Translations under genes and position numbers: made by a program
In this document: one piece after another, positions 119 through 63,053 of the stretch
Position numbering within the stretch: the first letter of the stretch is position 1
How the letters are laid out: every line of letters starts with the position of its first letter
Assembly: GCA_041667545.1 (NCBI GenBank)
Contig: JBAYES010000005.1
Location: 1-63,636, forward strand
Direction: 5' to 3'
Source of the DNA: Candidatus Omnitrophota bacterium
Lineage (GTDB): Bacteria > Omnitrophota > Gorgyraeia > Tantalellales > Tantalellaceae
DNA: 63,636 nucleotides
The notes under the pieces: generated by a model
What the model saw: only the letters and a program-made list of their open reading frames with translations
Databases searched by the model: none
What the model was told of the DNA's origin: nothing

Positions 119-205
119 ATGATACGAAGGGCTTCACCCGCCTTCGGCGGGTTCGCAAAGACGGGCGTTTGGACGCTATGTTTCCGTGGAGAACTGAAAT
201 GTTAC
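119..205. mobile_element. Half copy (right arm only) of the type-A MITE-like element, ending ...AACTGAAATGTTAC
   Basis: Aligns almost base for base with the right arm of the full copy at about 11825-11909 (GATACGAAGGGCTTCACCCGCCTTCGGCGGGTTCGCAAAGACGGGCG...CTGAAATGTTAC). No left arm is present. Confidence 0.7.
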
Positions 206-9763: not shown

Positions 9764-11653
9764 CTAATCATCGTTGATAAGAGGGTTAGCGGGAATAAGC
9801 CCGTTGTAATCGTCTATATTCCCGCCTTGCATGCAGCATTCAATGATCTTTTTGCCCCGCGGATCAATTTTTTCTTTGAGGAATTTTAACAGTTCCCGAT
9901 GAAAGAATTCAGTGAGGAGCGCGGCTCCCTTATCATACGCTTCTTCGCCGACTTCAGGCTGACGATCGACCCGGAGAAACCAGTCGCCGATCATTTGTCC
10001 TTCGATCATCATAGAGCGAACGGCGTAACCCAGAAGGGGACAGCGGGCCGGGACTAACTGCTCGCTGGGGAATTTTGCCATCCCCCTGCGGGCGAGATAT
10101 TCGCGGGCGATCCATTGGGGCATAAAACCAACTTCCCAGGCCCCAATATGCTGGTTGGGGCAGAGAATATAACGTGTGTCTGTATTGGAAATGAACTGGT
10201 CGAGCAAAAGATTCGCCTGTTCGATGAAAGAGCCGGGAGCGAACGGGCCGTAGGAGCCGACTCCCTCAGAGCTCATTCCTTGTGTCTGGATGATGCTGGG
10301 ATTGCCATACCCGCGAGGCGCGACAAGCCGCCACAGCCATGCCAGGGATGGCGGCAGAAATTGCAGCATTCCAAGTATGCCATAGGTGGGATTCTCTTTT
10401 GTAGAGGGCGGCGTTCGAACGCCAAAACTTCTTACATCAATAGTTGCCGGGCCGTTCAAAATATTCGGGACAACATCCCTTGGTATTATGACCCGAGGAT
10501 TGGGACAGGGGATACCCGGAGCATCTTCGACATGTTCCCAGATCAACGCGGTAGAGCCCGGAGCGGCATCAATATTTAAAAAAAGCAGAGGCCTTGAAGG
10601 ATGAGTTGTAATTTTCTCCAAATGAGGATCGGTGCCGTATTCTGTAATGTGGTTGACCCTGATAAACCAGGCGTCTTCGGCGTCGATCAGAGCCAGTTTC
10701 CCGTTTTTCTTCTGCAAAGAGGGAAGACATAAAGCCATGTCGTCATTAACGGGGCGTAATTCGCAGGCGCGGGGCAAAATGATATATCGCCTTTCTCCCG
10801 TGCTAAGATTTTTGCCCAAAAGAATGCTTCCGTCATGCTCGCGGTGGAGATTTTCCAGCATTTCGCTTTTTCCGCCGCCGCTCGCCCCTTCGTGCATAAT
10901 GGAGACTTTGTTGTCATAGGGAGTGATCACCTGCACCGTCGAACAATGGGCTGTCACCCAATTTTCCCGTTCACCCAGATTGATCAGCATGCCGTAAACA
11001 CCTTTTTTAGCGCTGGGGCCGGGATAAAGGTTATAACTGAACATCTCATACAAATTATTTAAACGGTTATGCACAACAACTTGTTTGCCTTCAAAATGAC
11101 TATGACGGAACGGAGGAGCGACATAGATGACGGCCTTCGGCTCAAAATTTTCCGGTAATTGGTCTGGATCAAGTATTCCCTGTAATAAGGCGAGTCCCAG
11201 CGCGAAAAAACCGGCATTGGAAGGCGCAACCACAACACTTTCAATACCATTCTCTTCAAAGCCGGCATTAAAGAAATATACGGATAGCTCTTGCGTTTTT
11301 AACCAATCAAACGTTTCCCGGCGAACTCGATGAAAATCGCTTTTAAAGCGCTCCTTGTATAGGCTTTTATTTGTTGGAAGTTCATCGGCTATCACCATGC
11401 ATTCAGGGTCTCTCCTGCGCATGTACGGCTCAACATAATTGGCGGCAATTCCGTTGCGTACCCGGCAAACACGGGCTTCGAGAACAGTTCCTTTACCCGG
11501 AACATCATAAGCCACATCATGCCATCCGTTCTTTTCGTCGCGACAGGCCAGATCTACGAGCATGTCCGCGCTGCTCGCGATGGTATAGGACGGGCAGTTG
11601 GACAAAACATCCGCCGCTTCCGGCGGTAACTTAAATTTATTCAGATCTTGCAT
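9764..11653 (-). CDS. Large P-loop protein, DUF4914-like (HprK/PEPCK-type GxSGxGKSE loop)
   Basis: 629-aa ORF. HEGASGGGKSEM resembles the HPr-kinase/PEPCK phosphate loop. The family name is from memory and not verified. Confidence 0.45.
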   Translation of the reverse strand: MQDLNKFKLPPEAADVLSNCPSYTIASSADMLVDLACRDEKNGWHDVAYDVPGKGTVLEARVCRVRNGIAANYVEPYMRRRDPECMVIADELPTNKSLYKERFKSDFHRVRRETFDWLKTQELSVYFFNAGFEENGIESVVVAPSNAGFFALGLALLQGILDPDQLPENFEPKAVIYVAPPFRHSHFEGKQVVVHNRLNNLYEMFSYNLYPGPSAKKGVYGMLINLGERENWVTAHCSTVQVITPYDNKVSIMHEGASGGGKSEMLENLHREHDGSILLGKNLSTGERRYIILPRACELRPVNDDMALCLPSLQKKNGKLALIDAEDAWFIRVNHITEYGTDPHLEKITTHPSRPLLFLNIDAAPGSTALIWEHVEDAPGIPCPNPRVIIPRDVVPNILNGPATIDVRSFGVRTPPSTKENPTYGILGMLQFLPPSLAWLWRLVAPRGYGNPSIIQTQGMSSEGVGSYGPFAPGSFIEQANLLLDQFISNTDTRYILCPNQHIGAWEVGFMPQWIAREYLARRGMAKFPSEQLVPARCPLLGYAVRSMMIEGQMIGDWFLRVDRQPEVGEEAYDKGAALLTEFFHRELLKFLKEKIDPRGKKIIECCMQGGNIDDYNGLIPANPLINDD

Positions 11654-11665
11654 AAGACTCTCCTT

Positions 11666-11909
11666 GTATCACCTCAGTTCTCCGCAGTAAATTCCCGCGC
11701 CGTCGTCACGAGGAGCCCCCGAAGGGGGCGACGAAGTGATCTCATAATATGAAAATATTTCAGAGAGGGATTGCTTCGGCCCTATGCCAAGTCTGCCGAA
11801 ATCCTGAGCCATAGCATTTATCACGATACGAAGGGCTTCACCCGCCTTCGGCGGGTTCGCAAAGACGGGCGTGGGTACGCTACATTTCCGCGGAAAACTG
11901 AAATGTTAC
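11666..11909. mobile_element. Type-A MITE-like element, full copy, with an 8-bp target-site duplication
   Basis: Ends are GTATCACCTCAGTT... (degenerate) and ...AACTGAAATGTTAC. Flanked by perfect CTCTCCTT at 11658-11665 and 11910-11917. No ORF. Internal hairpin modules are shared with the other copies. Confidence 0.85.
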
Positions 11910-12020
11910 CTCTCCTTAATTAATATCGACGCCACGCTTGACTTTCGGGCATTTGAAGTATATTATTGAACTAAGCATTTGTAAAATAGATAATGTATAT
12001 GCAAAACATTTAAAATATCT

Positions 12021-12914
12021 ATGATACCTTTTAACTACCATCACCTTTACTATTTTTATGTCATAGCCCGGGAAGGTTCCATTGCAAGGGCCACCGAGCA
12101 GCTCAGGCTTGCCCAGCCGACATTGAGCGCTCAACTTAAGCAATTTGAAGACTTTTTGAAGGTAAAACTGTTCATCCGGGACAACAGAAAACTAATTCTT
12201 ACCGAAGAGGGCCACAAGGTCCTTTCCTACGCCAAGCTGATATTCGACATCGGGCAGGAACTTAAAGACCGGATGGTCGACCTGAAACACAAGGGCAGGC
12301 CTCATATAAACATAGGGGTGGGAAATTTTGTGCCGAAGACCTTGATAGATCTGTTGCTGGATTTTATTCTACAAAAACAACCGGATACCTTTATTCAGCT
12401 GGAAAAAGATAAAATGCCGAAACTTGTTCAGGACCTGGAAGATCATGCCATTGATATCGTTTTAACCGATACTCCGTTCGAAACCCCGTTAGGGAAAGGA
12501 TTTCACAGTAAATTCATCGGCAAGATACCTGTTGTATTCTGCGCCCATGCCAGGCTGTCCAGAAAGATCAAAAATTTCCCCAAGGATTTAAACGGGCAGC
12601 CTTTCATTTTGCCTGCAATGCCTAATCAAATTGCCTATAGAATAAAAGAATTCCTTTATGAACACCATATAGAGCCGAACATTATCGGTGAGATACAGGA
12701 TATTGAGACGGTAAGACGCCTGGCATTAAGAGGGTACGGCATTGCCGCGATCAATGAATTGACTATTAAAGAGGCCCCGAGCAATAAAAAACTGGTTATT
12801 CTCAACAAAAACTATAAGCACACTATTTATGAGAAAGCGTACATCATTACAAAAAAACGCAAACAAACCCTTCCGATAGTAGAATTAGTTTTAAATAATT
12901 TTGTATTCTCTTGA
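12021..12914 (+). CDS. LysR-family transcriptional regulator
   Basis: The N-terminal HTH (LYYFYVIAREGSIARATEQLRLAQPTLSAQLKQFE) is a typical LysR signature. 297 aa, divergent from the DUF4914-MFS-pur operon. Confidence 0.85.
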   Translation: MIPFNYHHLYYFYVIAREGSIARATEQLRLAQPTLSAQLKQFEDFLKVKLFIRDNRKLILTEEGHKVLSYAKLIFDIGQELKDRMVDLKHKGRPHINIGVGNFVPKTLIDLLLDFILQKQPDTFIQLEKDKMPKLVQDLEDHAIDIVLTDTPFETPLGKGFHSKFIGKIPVVFCAHARLSRKIKNFPKDLNGQPFILPAMPNQIAYRIKEFLYEHHIEPNIIGEIQDIETVRRLALRGYGIAAINELTIKEAPSNKKLVILNKNYKHTIYEKAYIITKKRKQTLPIVELVLNNFVFS

Positions 12915-15914: not shown

Positions 15915-16233
15915 GTAACATTTCAGTTATCTGCAGTAAATTCCTGCACCGTCGTCACGAGGAGCCCTGTACCGTACGGTACAGGGCGACGAAGTGATCT
16001 CATAATATGAAAATATCTCGGAGGGAGATTGCTTCGGCCCTATGCAAAGTCTGCCGAAATCCTGAGCCTCGTATGTTCCCACGAAACGAAGGGCTTCGGC
16101 CCTATGCAAAGTCTGCCGAAATCCTGAGCCATAGCATTTATCACGATACGAAGGGCTTCGTCACTCACTTCGTTCGTTACTCGCAACGACGGGCGGTAGA
16201 ACGCGGAGTTACTGCGGAAGACTGAAATGTTAC
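15915..16233. mobile_element. Type-A MITE-like element, long variant with an internal 38-nt duplication
   Basis: Termini GTAACATTTCAGTT / AACTGAAATGTTAC. A perfect 38-nt repeat GCTTCGGCCCTATGCAAAGTCTGCCGAAATCCTGAGCC lies at 16031-16068 and 16093-16130. No flanking duplication found. Confidence 0.8.
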
Positions 16234-16691: not shown

Positions 16692-17872
16692 AAATGGAAA
16701 AGATAATTTACGAAGAGAGAGATCTTGGTTTTTTCGAAAGATATCTGACCTTATGGGTTATTGCCTGTATCGGAGCGGGCATTTTTACAGGCAGGGTCGC
16801 TCCTGATCTGGCGGCATTTTTGGATTCCCTTGCGATCTATGCGGGCGGCGCTCCGGTTGTTTCTATCCCTATAGCGGTCTGTTTATTCTTTATGATGTAT
16901 CCTATCATGGTCAAGATAGATTTTGCCGAAGTGGTGAAGGCCGGAAAATCCCCAAAACCTGTAGGCCTGACATTGTTCGTGAACTGGGCGGTAAAGCCCT
17001 TTACGATGTATGCCGTCGCGTTCTTATTTCTGGGAGTTCTTTTCAGGGGATTTATAGGGGAGGAAGCGGTTGATCTTGTCAAATTACCTCCGGGATCCGC
17101 GGATTGGGCTATCGGATCTATCAGAGGGTCGGGTACGGTGGTTTTTCATGAAGGCATAAAAATGCTTCAAGTGCCTTTGTGGCGAAGTTATTTCGCGGGC
17201 GCCATTCTTCTGGGCATTGCTCCCTGTACCGCAATGGTGCTCGTATGGGGGTTTTTGTCGAAGGGGAACGACGGGCATACTCTTGTTATGGTGGCTATAA
17301 ATTCTTTGACCATGCTTTTGCTGTACGGGGTCTTGGGGGGATTCTTGCTGGGGGTCGGCCAGATGCCGGTGCCCTGGGAGGCGCTTTTATTGTCTATCGC
17401 GATCTATGTGGCTCTGCCTCTTGTTGCGGGATATTTTTCAAGAAGATGGATAATTTCGAGAAAGGGGCTAAGCTGGTTCAATGAAAAGTTCCTGCACCTT
17501 CTTTCCCCGGTATCGATAATAGCACTGCTTATTACTCTTGTTTTGCTGTTTTCTCTTAAAGGAGGAGTGATATTAGCTCAGCCGCTGACCATTCTTTGGA
17601 TAGCCGTTCCGCTGTTCATTCAGACCTGTTTCATTTTTGCCGTAACGTACTGGATGGCAAAAAAATTAAAGTTACGATATGAAGACGCCGCCCCATCGGC
17701 ATTGGTGGGAGCCAGTAATCATTTTGAGGTGGCGATAGCGACAGCCACAATGTTGTTCGGCCTTTCATCAGGCGCGGCATTAGCCACGGTAGTCGGAGTT
17801 CTAATAGAAGTCCCGGTAATGCTTATGCTTGTTAAAGTTTGCCTTAGGACAAAAAACTGGTTCGCGAACTAA
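16688..17872 (+). CDS. acr3: ACR3-family arsenite efflux permease
   Basis: 394-aa membrane protein with an ATGA overlap onto arsR. Motifs such as [10 protein letters not shown] and [11 protein letters not shown] are typical of ACR3. Confidence 0.85.
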
Positions 17873-17875
17873 TAT

Positions 17876-18090
17876 AGAGTTCTGCGAAATGCCTATTTCT
17901 CGTCATTGCGAGGGAGCGAAGCGACTGAAGCAACCTTATAACCTGTTATATTTATTGAGATTGATTCGGCCATCTACTAAGTCTGCCGAAATCCTGAGCC
18001 ATGGCATTTATAACAATACGAAGGGCTTTGTCACTCACTTCGTTCGTTCCTCGCAAAGACAGAATAAAAGTCTATTTTGCAGAATTCTCT
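17876..18090. mobile_element. Type-B MITE-like element between acr3 and arsC, with a 9-bp target-site duplication
   Basis: Inverted termini AGAGTTCTGCGAAAT / ATTTTGCAGAATTCTCT. Direct repeat AACTAATAT at 17867-17875 (contains the acr3 stop TAA) and 18091-18099. Confidence 0.85.
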
Positions 18091-18607: not shown

Positions 18608-18692
18608 GTAACATATTGTGGGTGCTTTCGTGGGTCGTTGCGAGGAGCCCCCTGTACCATATGGTAAAGGGCGACGAAGCAATCCCATCTCC
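18608..18692. repeat. Degenerate fragment of the type-A element (left arm)
   Basis: GTAACATATTGTG...CGTTGCGAGGAGCCCCCTGTACCATATGGTAAAGGGCGACGAAGCAATC is a diverged version of the left arm seen at 15915-15990. Confidence 0.55.
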
Positions 18693-35307: not shown

Positions 35308-35424
35308 GGGCCGAAGCAATCCCTCTCCGAAATATTTTCATATTTTGAGATCACTTCGTCGCCCCCTTCGGGGGCTCCTCGTGACGACGGCGTAGGATTC
35401 TACTGCAGAAGACTGAAATGTTAC
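35308..35424. mobile_element. Half copy of the type-A MITE-like element (inverted orientation)
   Basis: ...GAGATCACTTCGTCGCCCCCTTCGGGGGCTCCTCGTGACGACGG...GACTGAAATGTTAC is the reverse complement of the left arm of the 11666 and 15915 copies. Confidence 0.7.
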
Positions 35425-43754: not shown

Positions 43755-44237
43755 ATGGAAGGGAAGTATACAGCCAAAGACATAATTGAAATGGCCGTAA
43801 AGGCCAAAGAAAAGGGAGCGGAATTATATCTGGCTCTTGCCCGGAATAGCGAGAATTTTCATGTTGGGCAGTTTTTTACGGAGCTTGCTAAGGATGAGCA
43901 CAGACATAAGATGCAGATAGAAAAATGGCTGGAAAGCTTAAGCCCGGAAAAACGCGAGGAGGCATATCCCGGAGAGAGATCCATGTACCTTAAGGCGATG
44001 GTAGATGACAATACCTTCAGATGCGACATGCTTAAAAAGCAAGCCCTTCAAAAGACCATCAGCGAAGAGACGGCTCTTGCCGCCGGGATAACTTTCGAAA
44101 AAGATTTTATGCTGTTTTTGCATGACCTTAAAAGAAATGTTCCCGAAAAAGATCAGGTTGTGGTAGAGAAGCTCATAGATGAAGAAATATGCCATCTCAA
44201 GGAAATGTTCGTTCTGTCCGAGAAAATCAAACGCTGA
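43755..44237 (+). CDS. Ferritin-like / rubrerythrin-family diiron protein
   Basis: Two E-x-x-H motifs (AKDEHRH and DEEICH) in a four-helix-bundle-sized protein. Confidence 0.6.
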   Translation: MEGKYTAKDIIEMAVKAKEKGAELYLALARNSENFHVGQFFTELAKDEHRHKMQIEKWLESLSPEKREEAYPGERSMYLKAMVDDNTFRCDMLKKQALQKTISEETALAAGITFEKDFMLFLHDLKRNVPEKDQVVVEKLIDEEICHLKEMFVLSEKIKR

Positions 44238-44256
44238 ACAGCTTTTCATCTGAACG

Positions 44257-44411
44257 GTAACATTTCAGTTATTCTCGGAAATGTAGAGTCTTCACGCTCT
44301 TCGTCAATAATCATCGAAATAAATTAATTTATTGAGATCACTTCGTCGTCCCCTTCGGGGGCTCCTCGTGACGACGGTGCAGGGTTCTATTGCAGATAAC
44401 TGAAATGTTAC
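44257..44411. mobile_element. Type-A MITE-like element, short variant, with an 8-bp target-site duplication
   Basis: GTAACATTTCAGTT / AACTGAAATGTTAC termini. Perfect TCTGAACG at 44249-44256 and 44412-44419. Confidence 0.85.
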
Positions 44412-44435
44412 TCTGAACGCGTATTATATGCCGGT

Positions 44436-61278: not shown

Positions 61279-61281
<3 letters not shown>
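60646..61281 (+). CDS. purN: Phosphoribosylglycinamide formyltransferase
   Basis: IAVLVSGNGTNLQAII, AGFMRVL and NIHPALLP motifs. The stop codon TAG (61279-61281) is the first three bases of the MITE terminus. Confidence 0.9.

Positions 61282-63053
<1,772 letters not shown>

Follow-up and report, generated by a model that had tools for sequence, protein, structure and literature searches.

A family of miniature inverted-repeat elements in an Omnitrophota genome and its relation to ISBst12-type insertion sequences

A stretch of 63,636 bp from a Candidatus Omnitrophota bacterium (assembly GCA_041667545.1, contig JBAYES010000005.1, forward strand; hereafter the window) carries short elements with inverted terminal repeats, among them a complete 244-bp copy at 11666-11909. 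The elements are very probably transposable elements of the miniature inverted-repeat kind (MITEs), that is non-autonomous deletion derivatives of a single-open-reading-frame (ORF) insertion sequence (IS) of the ISBst12 group within the IS66 family. Copies throughout the genome share sharp boundaries and 8-bp target-site duplications, their arms are those of an IS66-type IS that this genome also contains in the form of deletion intermediates, and one copy has paralogous counterparts in which the site is empty. The window is contig C5 of a 92-contig, 2.0-Mb assembly (G000), and other contigs are cited accordingly.

Boundaries, duplications and census of the family

All five copies in the window are intergenic (Table 1). 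When the window was re-read, the coordinates and sequences of every copy described in an earlier sequence-only reading held. Perfect 8-bp direct repeats bracket the 244-bp copy (CTCTCCTT) and the 155-bp copy (TCTGAACG), the latter lying between convergent genes, 19 nt past a stop codon that ends at 44237. The flanks of both copies are unique in the genome and are therefore not part of a longer duplicated segment, which upholds the interpretation of the repeats as a footprint of transposition and not of duplication. The exact 12-mer GTAACATTTCAG occurs seven times in the window, at every place where a copy was listed. That the copies end in this inverted repeat is generally true, but the left tip of the 244-bp copy reads GTATCACCTCAG and matches the 12-mer at 9 of 12 positions only. 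Likewise, all three full copies were present at the positions given, but the 319-bp copy, located in a divergent intergenic region, is flanked by GGATCGCG and CAGGCAAA and carries no duplication. The two half copies were recognized as single arms and the fragment at 18608-18692 as a degenerate related arm. A single element split by inversion was considered for the half copies (119-205 and 35308-35424) and rejected, as the sequences bordering them on the outside, GGGGGGTT and GAATGGTC, lack the reverse complementarity that an inversion would leave.

The sequence-only reading had proposed to count copies genome-wide and to look for empty sites and for an IS with matching ends. The exact tip GTAACATTTCAG was found 78 times in the genome, with 0.24 expected, and a 22-nt tip consensus allowing up to five mismatches was found 143 times, compared with 3 times in a shuffled genome; grouped genome-wide, the tips fall into 80 loci. 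At each locus the outermost tips were taken, and both outer ends could be read in 27 elements. Perfect 8-bp duplications were detected in 13 of these and duplications matching at 7 of 8 positions in another two, the chance of a single perfect 8/8 flanking duplication being about 1.5e-5. Ends were also placed by interior sequence alone, leaving the tip unused. With this placement, columns conserved at about 90-100% give way to columns at about 30-40% precisely where the G of GTAAC (tip base 1) stands, and the flanks are conserved at random level across the family. In the arm that we call D (downstream of the transposase, as opposed to U, upstream of it) the tip is GTAACATTTCAG at 14 ends, GTAACATCTCAG at nine and GTATCACCTCAG, the variant of the 244-bp copy, at seven.

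The copy at C65:8880-9161, with the duplication ATAGTTTG, interrupts another repeat, of which intact paralogs at C11:9291-9410 and on C63 contain ATAGTTTG once. Comparison with these uninterrupted paralogs, as related empty sites, supports insertion of the C65 copy. Copies flanked by duplications measure 155-590 bp genome-wide, the longest being extended by tandem tip units or additional cassettes, and their coding capacity is limited to spurious ORFs of about 50 aa.

The family accounts for much of the repeat content of the genome. Since a family tip is found no more than 700 bp from 40 of the 184 contig ends, the family also explains part of the fragmentation of the assembly, and the copy numbers given here are lower bounds. 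Family matches were present in two of three congeneric genomes (18 and 6 matches). A search of 185,579 species genomes for the exact tip pattern, leaving out the records of the window itself, yielded six single matches at chance level in unrelated taxa, which indicates that the exact family is confined to its lineage. The plasmid collection that was searched contained no match to the element.

Parent insertion sequence and derivation of the MITEs

A search of the genome with the profile PF03050 (DDE_Tnp_IS66) gave matches on C12, C60 and C69, all at contig ends, with 127 bits at C12; a 447-aa relative in G011, a genome of the same family, scored 115 bits. Profile searches of the genome gave no TnpB_IS66 (PF05717) and no zf-IS66, and no IS66 transposase match was obtained on the contig of the window, in line with the earlier statement that the window is devoid of a transposase. 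On C12, C60 and C69 the stop codon of the transposase is followed by about 100 nt ending in ...CTGAAATGTTAC, which corresponds to the left arm of the 244-bp copy. On C47, a promoter (TTGCAA-17-TATACT) comes next after the U arm, then a ribosome-binding site (RBS; GAGGAG) and the N-terminus of the transposase, the coding sequence of which overlaps the start of the C12 fragment. Identity between MITE arms and IS arms is 87-95% over 75-100 nt. Hence an IS with matching ends was recovered, in the form of IS66-type transposase fragments flanked by the same arms. The copy on C69 is a deletion intermediate of about 600 bp, in which only the final ~90 codons of the gene, closed by a TAG stop, separate the U arm from the D arm, and C28, C86, C47 and C55 each carry a different internal deletion or frameshift.

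Longer relatives were found elsewhere. In L041, a contig of another metagenome, positions 65-1718 hold a 1654-bp element with the tips GTAACACCTCAG and GTAACATCTCAG, a perfect duplication CTTCGATC and a transposase with 88% identity. L042 contains an intact 457-aa ORF followed by a D arm of the same kind, and the IS of G011 measures 1566 bp, has an ORF of 447 aa and carries GTAATAGTTCAG as its tip. In L041, L042 and L017 (1566 bp) one ORF lies between the ends. Directly downstream of the intact IS in L042, an ORF at 1637-2362 resembles the start of another transposase. In L043, L053, L059 and other relatives of about 1.9 kb, the flanks outside the GTAAYAGTTCAGCT tips are alike (left CTnnTTTT, right GATnTTTT) and show no 8-bp duplication; the true ends of these relatives may lie further out, or the IS copies may be nested in another repeated element. 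The sequence at C72:7916-8041 was considered as the 5' part of an IS but was left unassigned, its interior being unlike that of the C47 IS.

These features are those of the ISBst12 group, whose members are about 1.35-1.9 kb long (ISfinder range). As in this group, which includes ISBst12 of Geobacillus stearothermophilus and ISDge4, a single DDE_Tnp_IS66 protein of about 450 aa is encoded without TnpA/TnpB accessory genes, the length is about 1.6 kb, insertion produces an 8-bp direct repeat, and the terminal inverted repeats are imperfect and start GTAAC...TCAG. ISDge4 of Deinococcus geothermalis, whose terminal inverted repeats are GTAACTGCTCAGCA and GTGACTACTCAGCA, encodes a transposase of 449 aa and is flanked by a direct repeat of 8 bp; its transposition has been seen (PMC12898284). 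Unlike members of the group, the window copies are gene-less derivatives of 155-319 bp, and the arms contain a CGTC-headed hairpin unit (see below) that some relatives, for example the G011 IS, lack.

The MITEs are built of a U arm (~84 nt), zero to three copies of a cassette M (62-71 nt, bounded by GAAGC) and a D arm (~105 nt). More than ten copies share an identical 244-bp architecture and identical junctions, at pairwise identities of 82-98%; the 244-bp copy of the window is 89-97% identical to more than ten others. Its twin at C2:82595-82776 (182 bp) lacks the cassette and is 100% identical over positions 1-112, so that gain or loss of M must be recent. In the 155-bp copy the interior of the D arm is that of a second IS subfamily (C69/C28 type) and is joined to a U arm of about 49 nt; this form therefore stems from an independent deletion.

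Based on these observations, the following course of events is proposed. The full IS would have measured about 1.65 kb, with the tip GTAAC-A-Y-Y-TCAG at both ends and, in this order, an upstream arm of ~85 nt, its own promoter, a DDE transposase of ~450 aa and a downstream arm of ~105 nt. An internal deletion joining both arms would have given a MITE of ~180 bp, most copies of which would then have gained one to three cassettes of ~70 nt to reach 244 bp, 319 bp and so on, while the 155-bp form would go back to another deletion, independent of the first, in a sister subfamily of the IS. The IS transposase would recognize the shared arms in trans, cut at the G of GTAAC and integrate the element with 8-bp staggered cuts, producing the 8-bp duplications, mostly in intergenic, mildly AT-rich DNA without a fixed target motif. 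Mobilization in trans had been taken as a necessity by the sequence-only reading. A partner with matching arms was indeed found, from which we infer the trans step, and the family may still be mobile at present.

Compared with classical bacterial MITEs such as Correia, RUP, Nezha and Chunjie (PMC3184786, PMC10969869), the family, though well documented, represents mobile DNA of an ordinary type: the elements are short, non-coding, multi-copy and mostly intergenic, they have terminal inverted repeats and flanking direct repeats, they can fold into long hairpins, and their length varies by internal insertions and deletions. Chunjie elements are 178-235 bp long with folding energies near -100 kcal/mol (PMC3184786, PMC10969869), but make direct repeats of 9 bp instead of 8 bp. 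The tips of the classical families are unrelated to those described here, and the present family differs in that its parent IS and graded deletion intermediates occur in the same genome. It thereby offers, in an uncultivated lineage, an unusually complete natural series of the IS66/ISBst12 type from IS through deletion intermediates and MITEs to cassette-bearing MITEs. Three features are less ordinary: both arms have a CGTC-headed hairpin that is fixed in place and covaries, a second MITE family has the cassette in common, and tandem arrays are anchored at the tips.

Such arrays, with units of 39, 48, 61 or 84 nt, were found at about 18 loci. The first base of each unit coincides with that of a tip, its end falls within the arm hairpin or next to it, and in arrays with a duplication (C11, C33, C38, C54, C72) it is the outermost tip that is flanked by it. 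They may have arisen when one element inserted into the arm of another, with inter-arm recombination and then unequal exchange as later steps, or by slippage at the hairpin. Examples, all located outside the window, are C9:43516-43755, C33:21973-22212, C43:16242-16400, C72:4192-4423 and C24:5-122.

Table 1. Elements of the family in the window, their parts, and neighbouring genes and sites (U, D: arms upstream and downstream of the transposase in the IS)
Feature	Position	Strand	Remarks
Complete 244-bp MITE	11666..11909	+	D arm left, U arm right; D tip is the variant GTATCACCTCAG, U tip is GTAACATTTCAG
Target-site duplication CTCTCCTT, gene-proximal	11658..11665		minus strand is the Shine-Dalgarno sequence AAGGAGAG, 4 nt ahead of the ATG at 11653
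Target-site duplication CTCTCCTT, distal	11910..11917		
D arm	11666..11768	+	homologous to ~100 nt after the transposase stop codon; identity 87-89% to C12/C60, 84% to C69
D-arm hairpin unit	11701..11740	+	CGTC-GTCAC-GAGGA-GCCCCC GAA GGGGGC-GACGAA-GTGAT; 35 nt from tip
Internal cassette M	11769..11839	+	GAAGC direct repeats at its bounds; 0-3 per copy; also in second MITE family
U arm (tip at 11909)	11835..11909	-	homologous to the end upstream of the C47 transposase promoter, 87% identity
U-arm hairpin unit, CGTC-headed	11835..11867	-	42 nt from tip
Complete 155-bp MITE	44257..44411	-	U arm left (cut at ~49 nt), D arm right, no M cassette
Target-site duplication TCTGAACG, left	44249..44256		
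Target-site duplication TCTGAACG, right	44412..44419		
319-bp copy	15915..16233	+	both tips exact; D arm with long hairpin, two tandem M cassettes, variant U arm
Solo U arm (tip at 205)	119..205	-	stops a few bases into M cassette
Solo D arm (tip at 35424)	35308..35424	-	stops a few bases into M cassette; 92% identical to C12 IS D arm
Degenerate related arm	18608..18692	+	starts GTAACAT, diverges, retains CGTC-type hairpin unit (GTCGTTGCGAGGAGCC...GGCGACGAAGCAATC)
DUF4914 protein gene, 629 aa	9764..11653	-	MITE occupies the leader
Promoter-like site TTTACA-17-TATACT	11957..11985	-	DUF4914 strand, upstream of the MITE; consensus match only
LysR-type regulator gene	12021..12914	+	divergent, far side of the insertion

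The CGTC-headed hairpin unit and alternative explanations

Both arms contain a hairpin unit in which a CGTC head is followed by a stem arm of 5 nt, GAGGA, a hairpin of variable sequence length, GACGAA and the complementary stem arm, starting 35 nt from the tip in the D arm and 42 nt from it in the U arm. A total of 355 heads matching [CT]GTC-NTYRC-GA were counted in the genome; 108 of them lie at 35 or 42 nt from a tip of the family, 118 at 25 or 27 nt from a tip of a second MITE family, and 129 elsewhere, many in arrays. The outer stem covaries (TTGC/GCAA, TCAC/GTGA, TCGC/GCGA, TTAC/GTAA), and the inner hairpin varies in length from 3 to 11 bp with its pairing kept. Among metagenomic relatives of about 57-61% identity, comparable units are present in one or both arms of L045, L051, L053, L063 and L073; they are absent from others, among them the G011 IS. 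A hammerhead or other ribozyme was considered for the GA-rich hairpin and rejected after inspection of core motifs and an empty Rfam result: over the whole window nothing reached the gathering threshold, and on the element there was no hit at E<=1.

The second MITE family is represented in the window by copies at ~17870-18090 and 61280-61496, with tips reading AGAGTTCTGCRAAAT... (AGAGTTCTGC...) in place of GTAAC. Its duplications are 9-10 bp long (AACTAATAT, TCAAAAAAA), unlike those of the present family, and each of the two copies in the window is located a short way upstream of an RBS. It has in common with the present family the M cassette and a CGTC-headed unit, there with a GCGAAGC mini-hairpin, and its arms resemble the arms described here from about base 11 inward (AGTTCTGCRAAATG compared with AGTTCTCCGCAGAAATG).

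The unit recalls the CGTC-tagged superfamily of repetitive extragenic palindromes (REPs), described as a single stem of 8-9 bp with a loop of 4-5 nt and a CCA tail (Di Nocera, De Gregorio and Rocco 2013, PMC3733652). In both, an unpaired CGTC (sometimes TGTC) head stands beside a palindrome that is highly repeated; the stem of the ATTGC/GCAAT variant starts with A-T and T-A pairs, and head-to-head pairs are frequent, which here corresponds to one unit per arm. The units described here differ in the 5-bp outer stem, the purine-rich internal loop (GAGGA/GACGAA), the variable inner hairpin and the missing CCA tail, and in that most of them are placed at a fixed distance inside transposon arms. 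Because of the fixed 35/42-nt spacing, the covarying outer stem and the presence at both IS ends, and because the unit recurs in distant metagenomic relatives and in a second MITE family with different tips, we put forward, with considerable reserve, the idea that the hairpin is a working part of ISBst12-type transposon arms and not a passenger. If so, the vehicle by which CGTC-tagged REP-like palindromes spread, so far missing, would be the DDE transposases of the IS66 family, acting by way of MITEs, and self-targeted insertion at the hairpin might be what the tip-anchored tandem arrays record. The 2013 survey of CGTC-tagged repeats found no dedicated transposase for them (PMC3733652). How REP-like hairpins spread without one is the wider question, and in the present genome at least 64% of one hairpin type lies inside transposon arms.

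Several findings weigh against the proposed course of events. An intact transposase gene was not found in the genome, where every piece is cut by a contig end, frameshifted, stop-containing or internally deleted. L041, the closest full-length relative, has a reading frame that is broken once; the full-length IS of G011 has no target-site duplication; and 8-bp duplications were present at only 2 of 35 called tip pairs of the ~1.9-kb metagenomic relatives. Within the family the duplication is missing in 12 of the 27 paired elements, including the 319-bp copy. Finally, no orthologous empty site was found for the window copies in the DNA of relatives, by protein synteny or in metagenome contigs; of the empty sites sought, the paralogous one of the C65 copy is thus the one recovered. 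The empty sites were reconstructed as ...CATAAGACTCTCCTT joined to AATTAATATC... for the 244-bp copy and ...CATCTGAACG joined to CGTATTATAT... for the 155-bp copy. The joined flanks of the former gave only self matches and weak coding matches against 40 relatives, and the exact empty-site 26-mer had no match in metagenome contigs. Congeneric genomes are too divergent for this comparison: G003 alone had an ortholog of the DUF4914 gene next to this site, 53% identical and with another upstream neighbour, so that it offers no comparable site. Two Logan contigs of SRR6485349 that encode identical proteins each end within the MITE, which shows an occupied site and no empty allele in that sample as well.

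It is quite possible, though on balance we doubt it, that the elements are true ISBst12-type MITEs but fossil in this genome, with no functional transposase left and no mobilization. The damaged state of all transposase fragments found, the differences of 2-18% between copies and the many solo or truncated arms fit such a view, whereas the 13 duplications that are still perfect and arms that are 100% identical over 112 nt between loci do not. Moreover, an intact transposase gene may have been collapsed by the assembler: all IS66-type transposase pieces except C55:12649-12759, itself ~100 nt from a contig end, touch a contig end, the 283-aa C-terminal piece on C12 is open up to the end of its contig, and contig ends lie close to family tips as described above. 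That the short elements are instead independent products of in-place decay of full-length IS copies, and not amplified MITEs, is highly improbable. Different internal deletion derivatives do exist (C69, C28, C86, C47), but more than ten loci share the 244-bp architecture, the arm-cassette junctions and the variant tips, which requires copying after the deletion, and short copies outnumber IS pieces roughly ten to one.

We find it barely credible that the elements are CGTC-tagged REP-type palindromes spread by a tyrosine transposase (Y1/RAYT-like), with the inverted tips being incidental. The unit is present in both arms and has some 350 heads in the genome, and three Y1_Tnp genes (IS200/IS605- or RAYT-like) were found at C22:3432-3773, C8:22120-22455 and C37:16722-17045, but the 2.5 kb around each of these genes are free of CGTC-headed units. 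To our knowledge, terminal inverted repeats and 8-bp duplications are not products of Y1 transposases; both are present here, homology and duplications are set by the GTAAC tips and not by the hairpins, and at least 226 of the 355 heads are found at the fixed distances from a MITE tip. Targeting also had to be considered, since the 244-bp copy duplicated exactly AAGGAGAG. Homing to ribosome-binding sites is nevertheless very unlikely. When the 13 perfect duplications were oriented to the element, no position-specific consensus emerged, only an A+T content of 67% compared with 54% in the genome, and the site at 11658 is the single RBS-like one, the others being GATTCTAA, TCTGAACG, AAATTGTA, CATAATTT and similar sequences. 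Given these targets, the RBS match of the 244-bp copy is probably coincidental.

The insertion in the DUF4914 leader

None of the restored target sites points to a clearly disrupted gene, mostly short open frames running across them. The longest is that at the 244-bp copy, where the frame of the DUF4914 gene continues upstream of its own ATG. That the insertion split the RBS of this gene was correctly seen in the sequence-only reading, the minus strand reading AAGGAGAG-TCTT-ATG with the ATG at 11653, and because the target was duplicated the gene keeps this RBS intact. The site at 11957-11985 is the sole minus-strand promoter-like site in the intergenic region, and neither a promoter-like nor a terminator-like site was identified inside the element. 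According to the proposed course of events, the element would have entered the 8 bp forming the RBS and moved the likely promoter about 250 nt further off, so that the leader would hold the whole element and could fold into a long hairpin. A transcript starting from the promoter-like site would have a leader of about 300 nt including the entire MITE, for which the predicted fold, with the two arms paired, has an energy of -102.7 kcal/mol and a z-score of -3.3 relative to shuffles. The earlier claim that 244 nt of hairpin-prone RNA were added to the leader thus gains a promoter-like site upstream of the element, a consensus match, on which the putative longer leader, and with it a possible effect on expression, is conditional.

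The insertion also separates the divergent LysR gene from its probable target operon, which marks it as an insertion between a likely LysR-controlled promoter and a DUF4914-purine operon. In the region 11654-12020 a DUF4914-MFS-purC block is divergent from the LysR regulator, and without the MITE the shared intergenic region would be about 115 bp, a length typical of a LysR-controlled divergent promoter.

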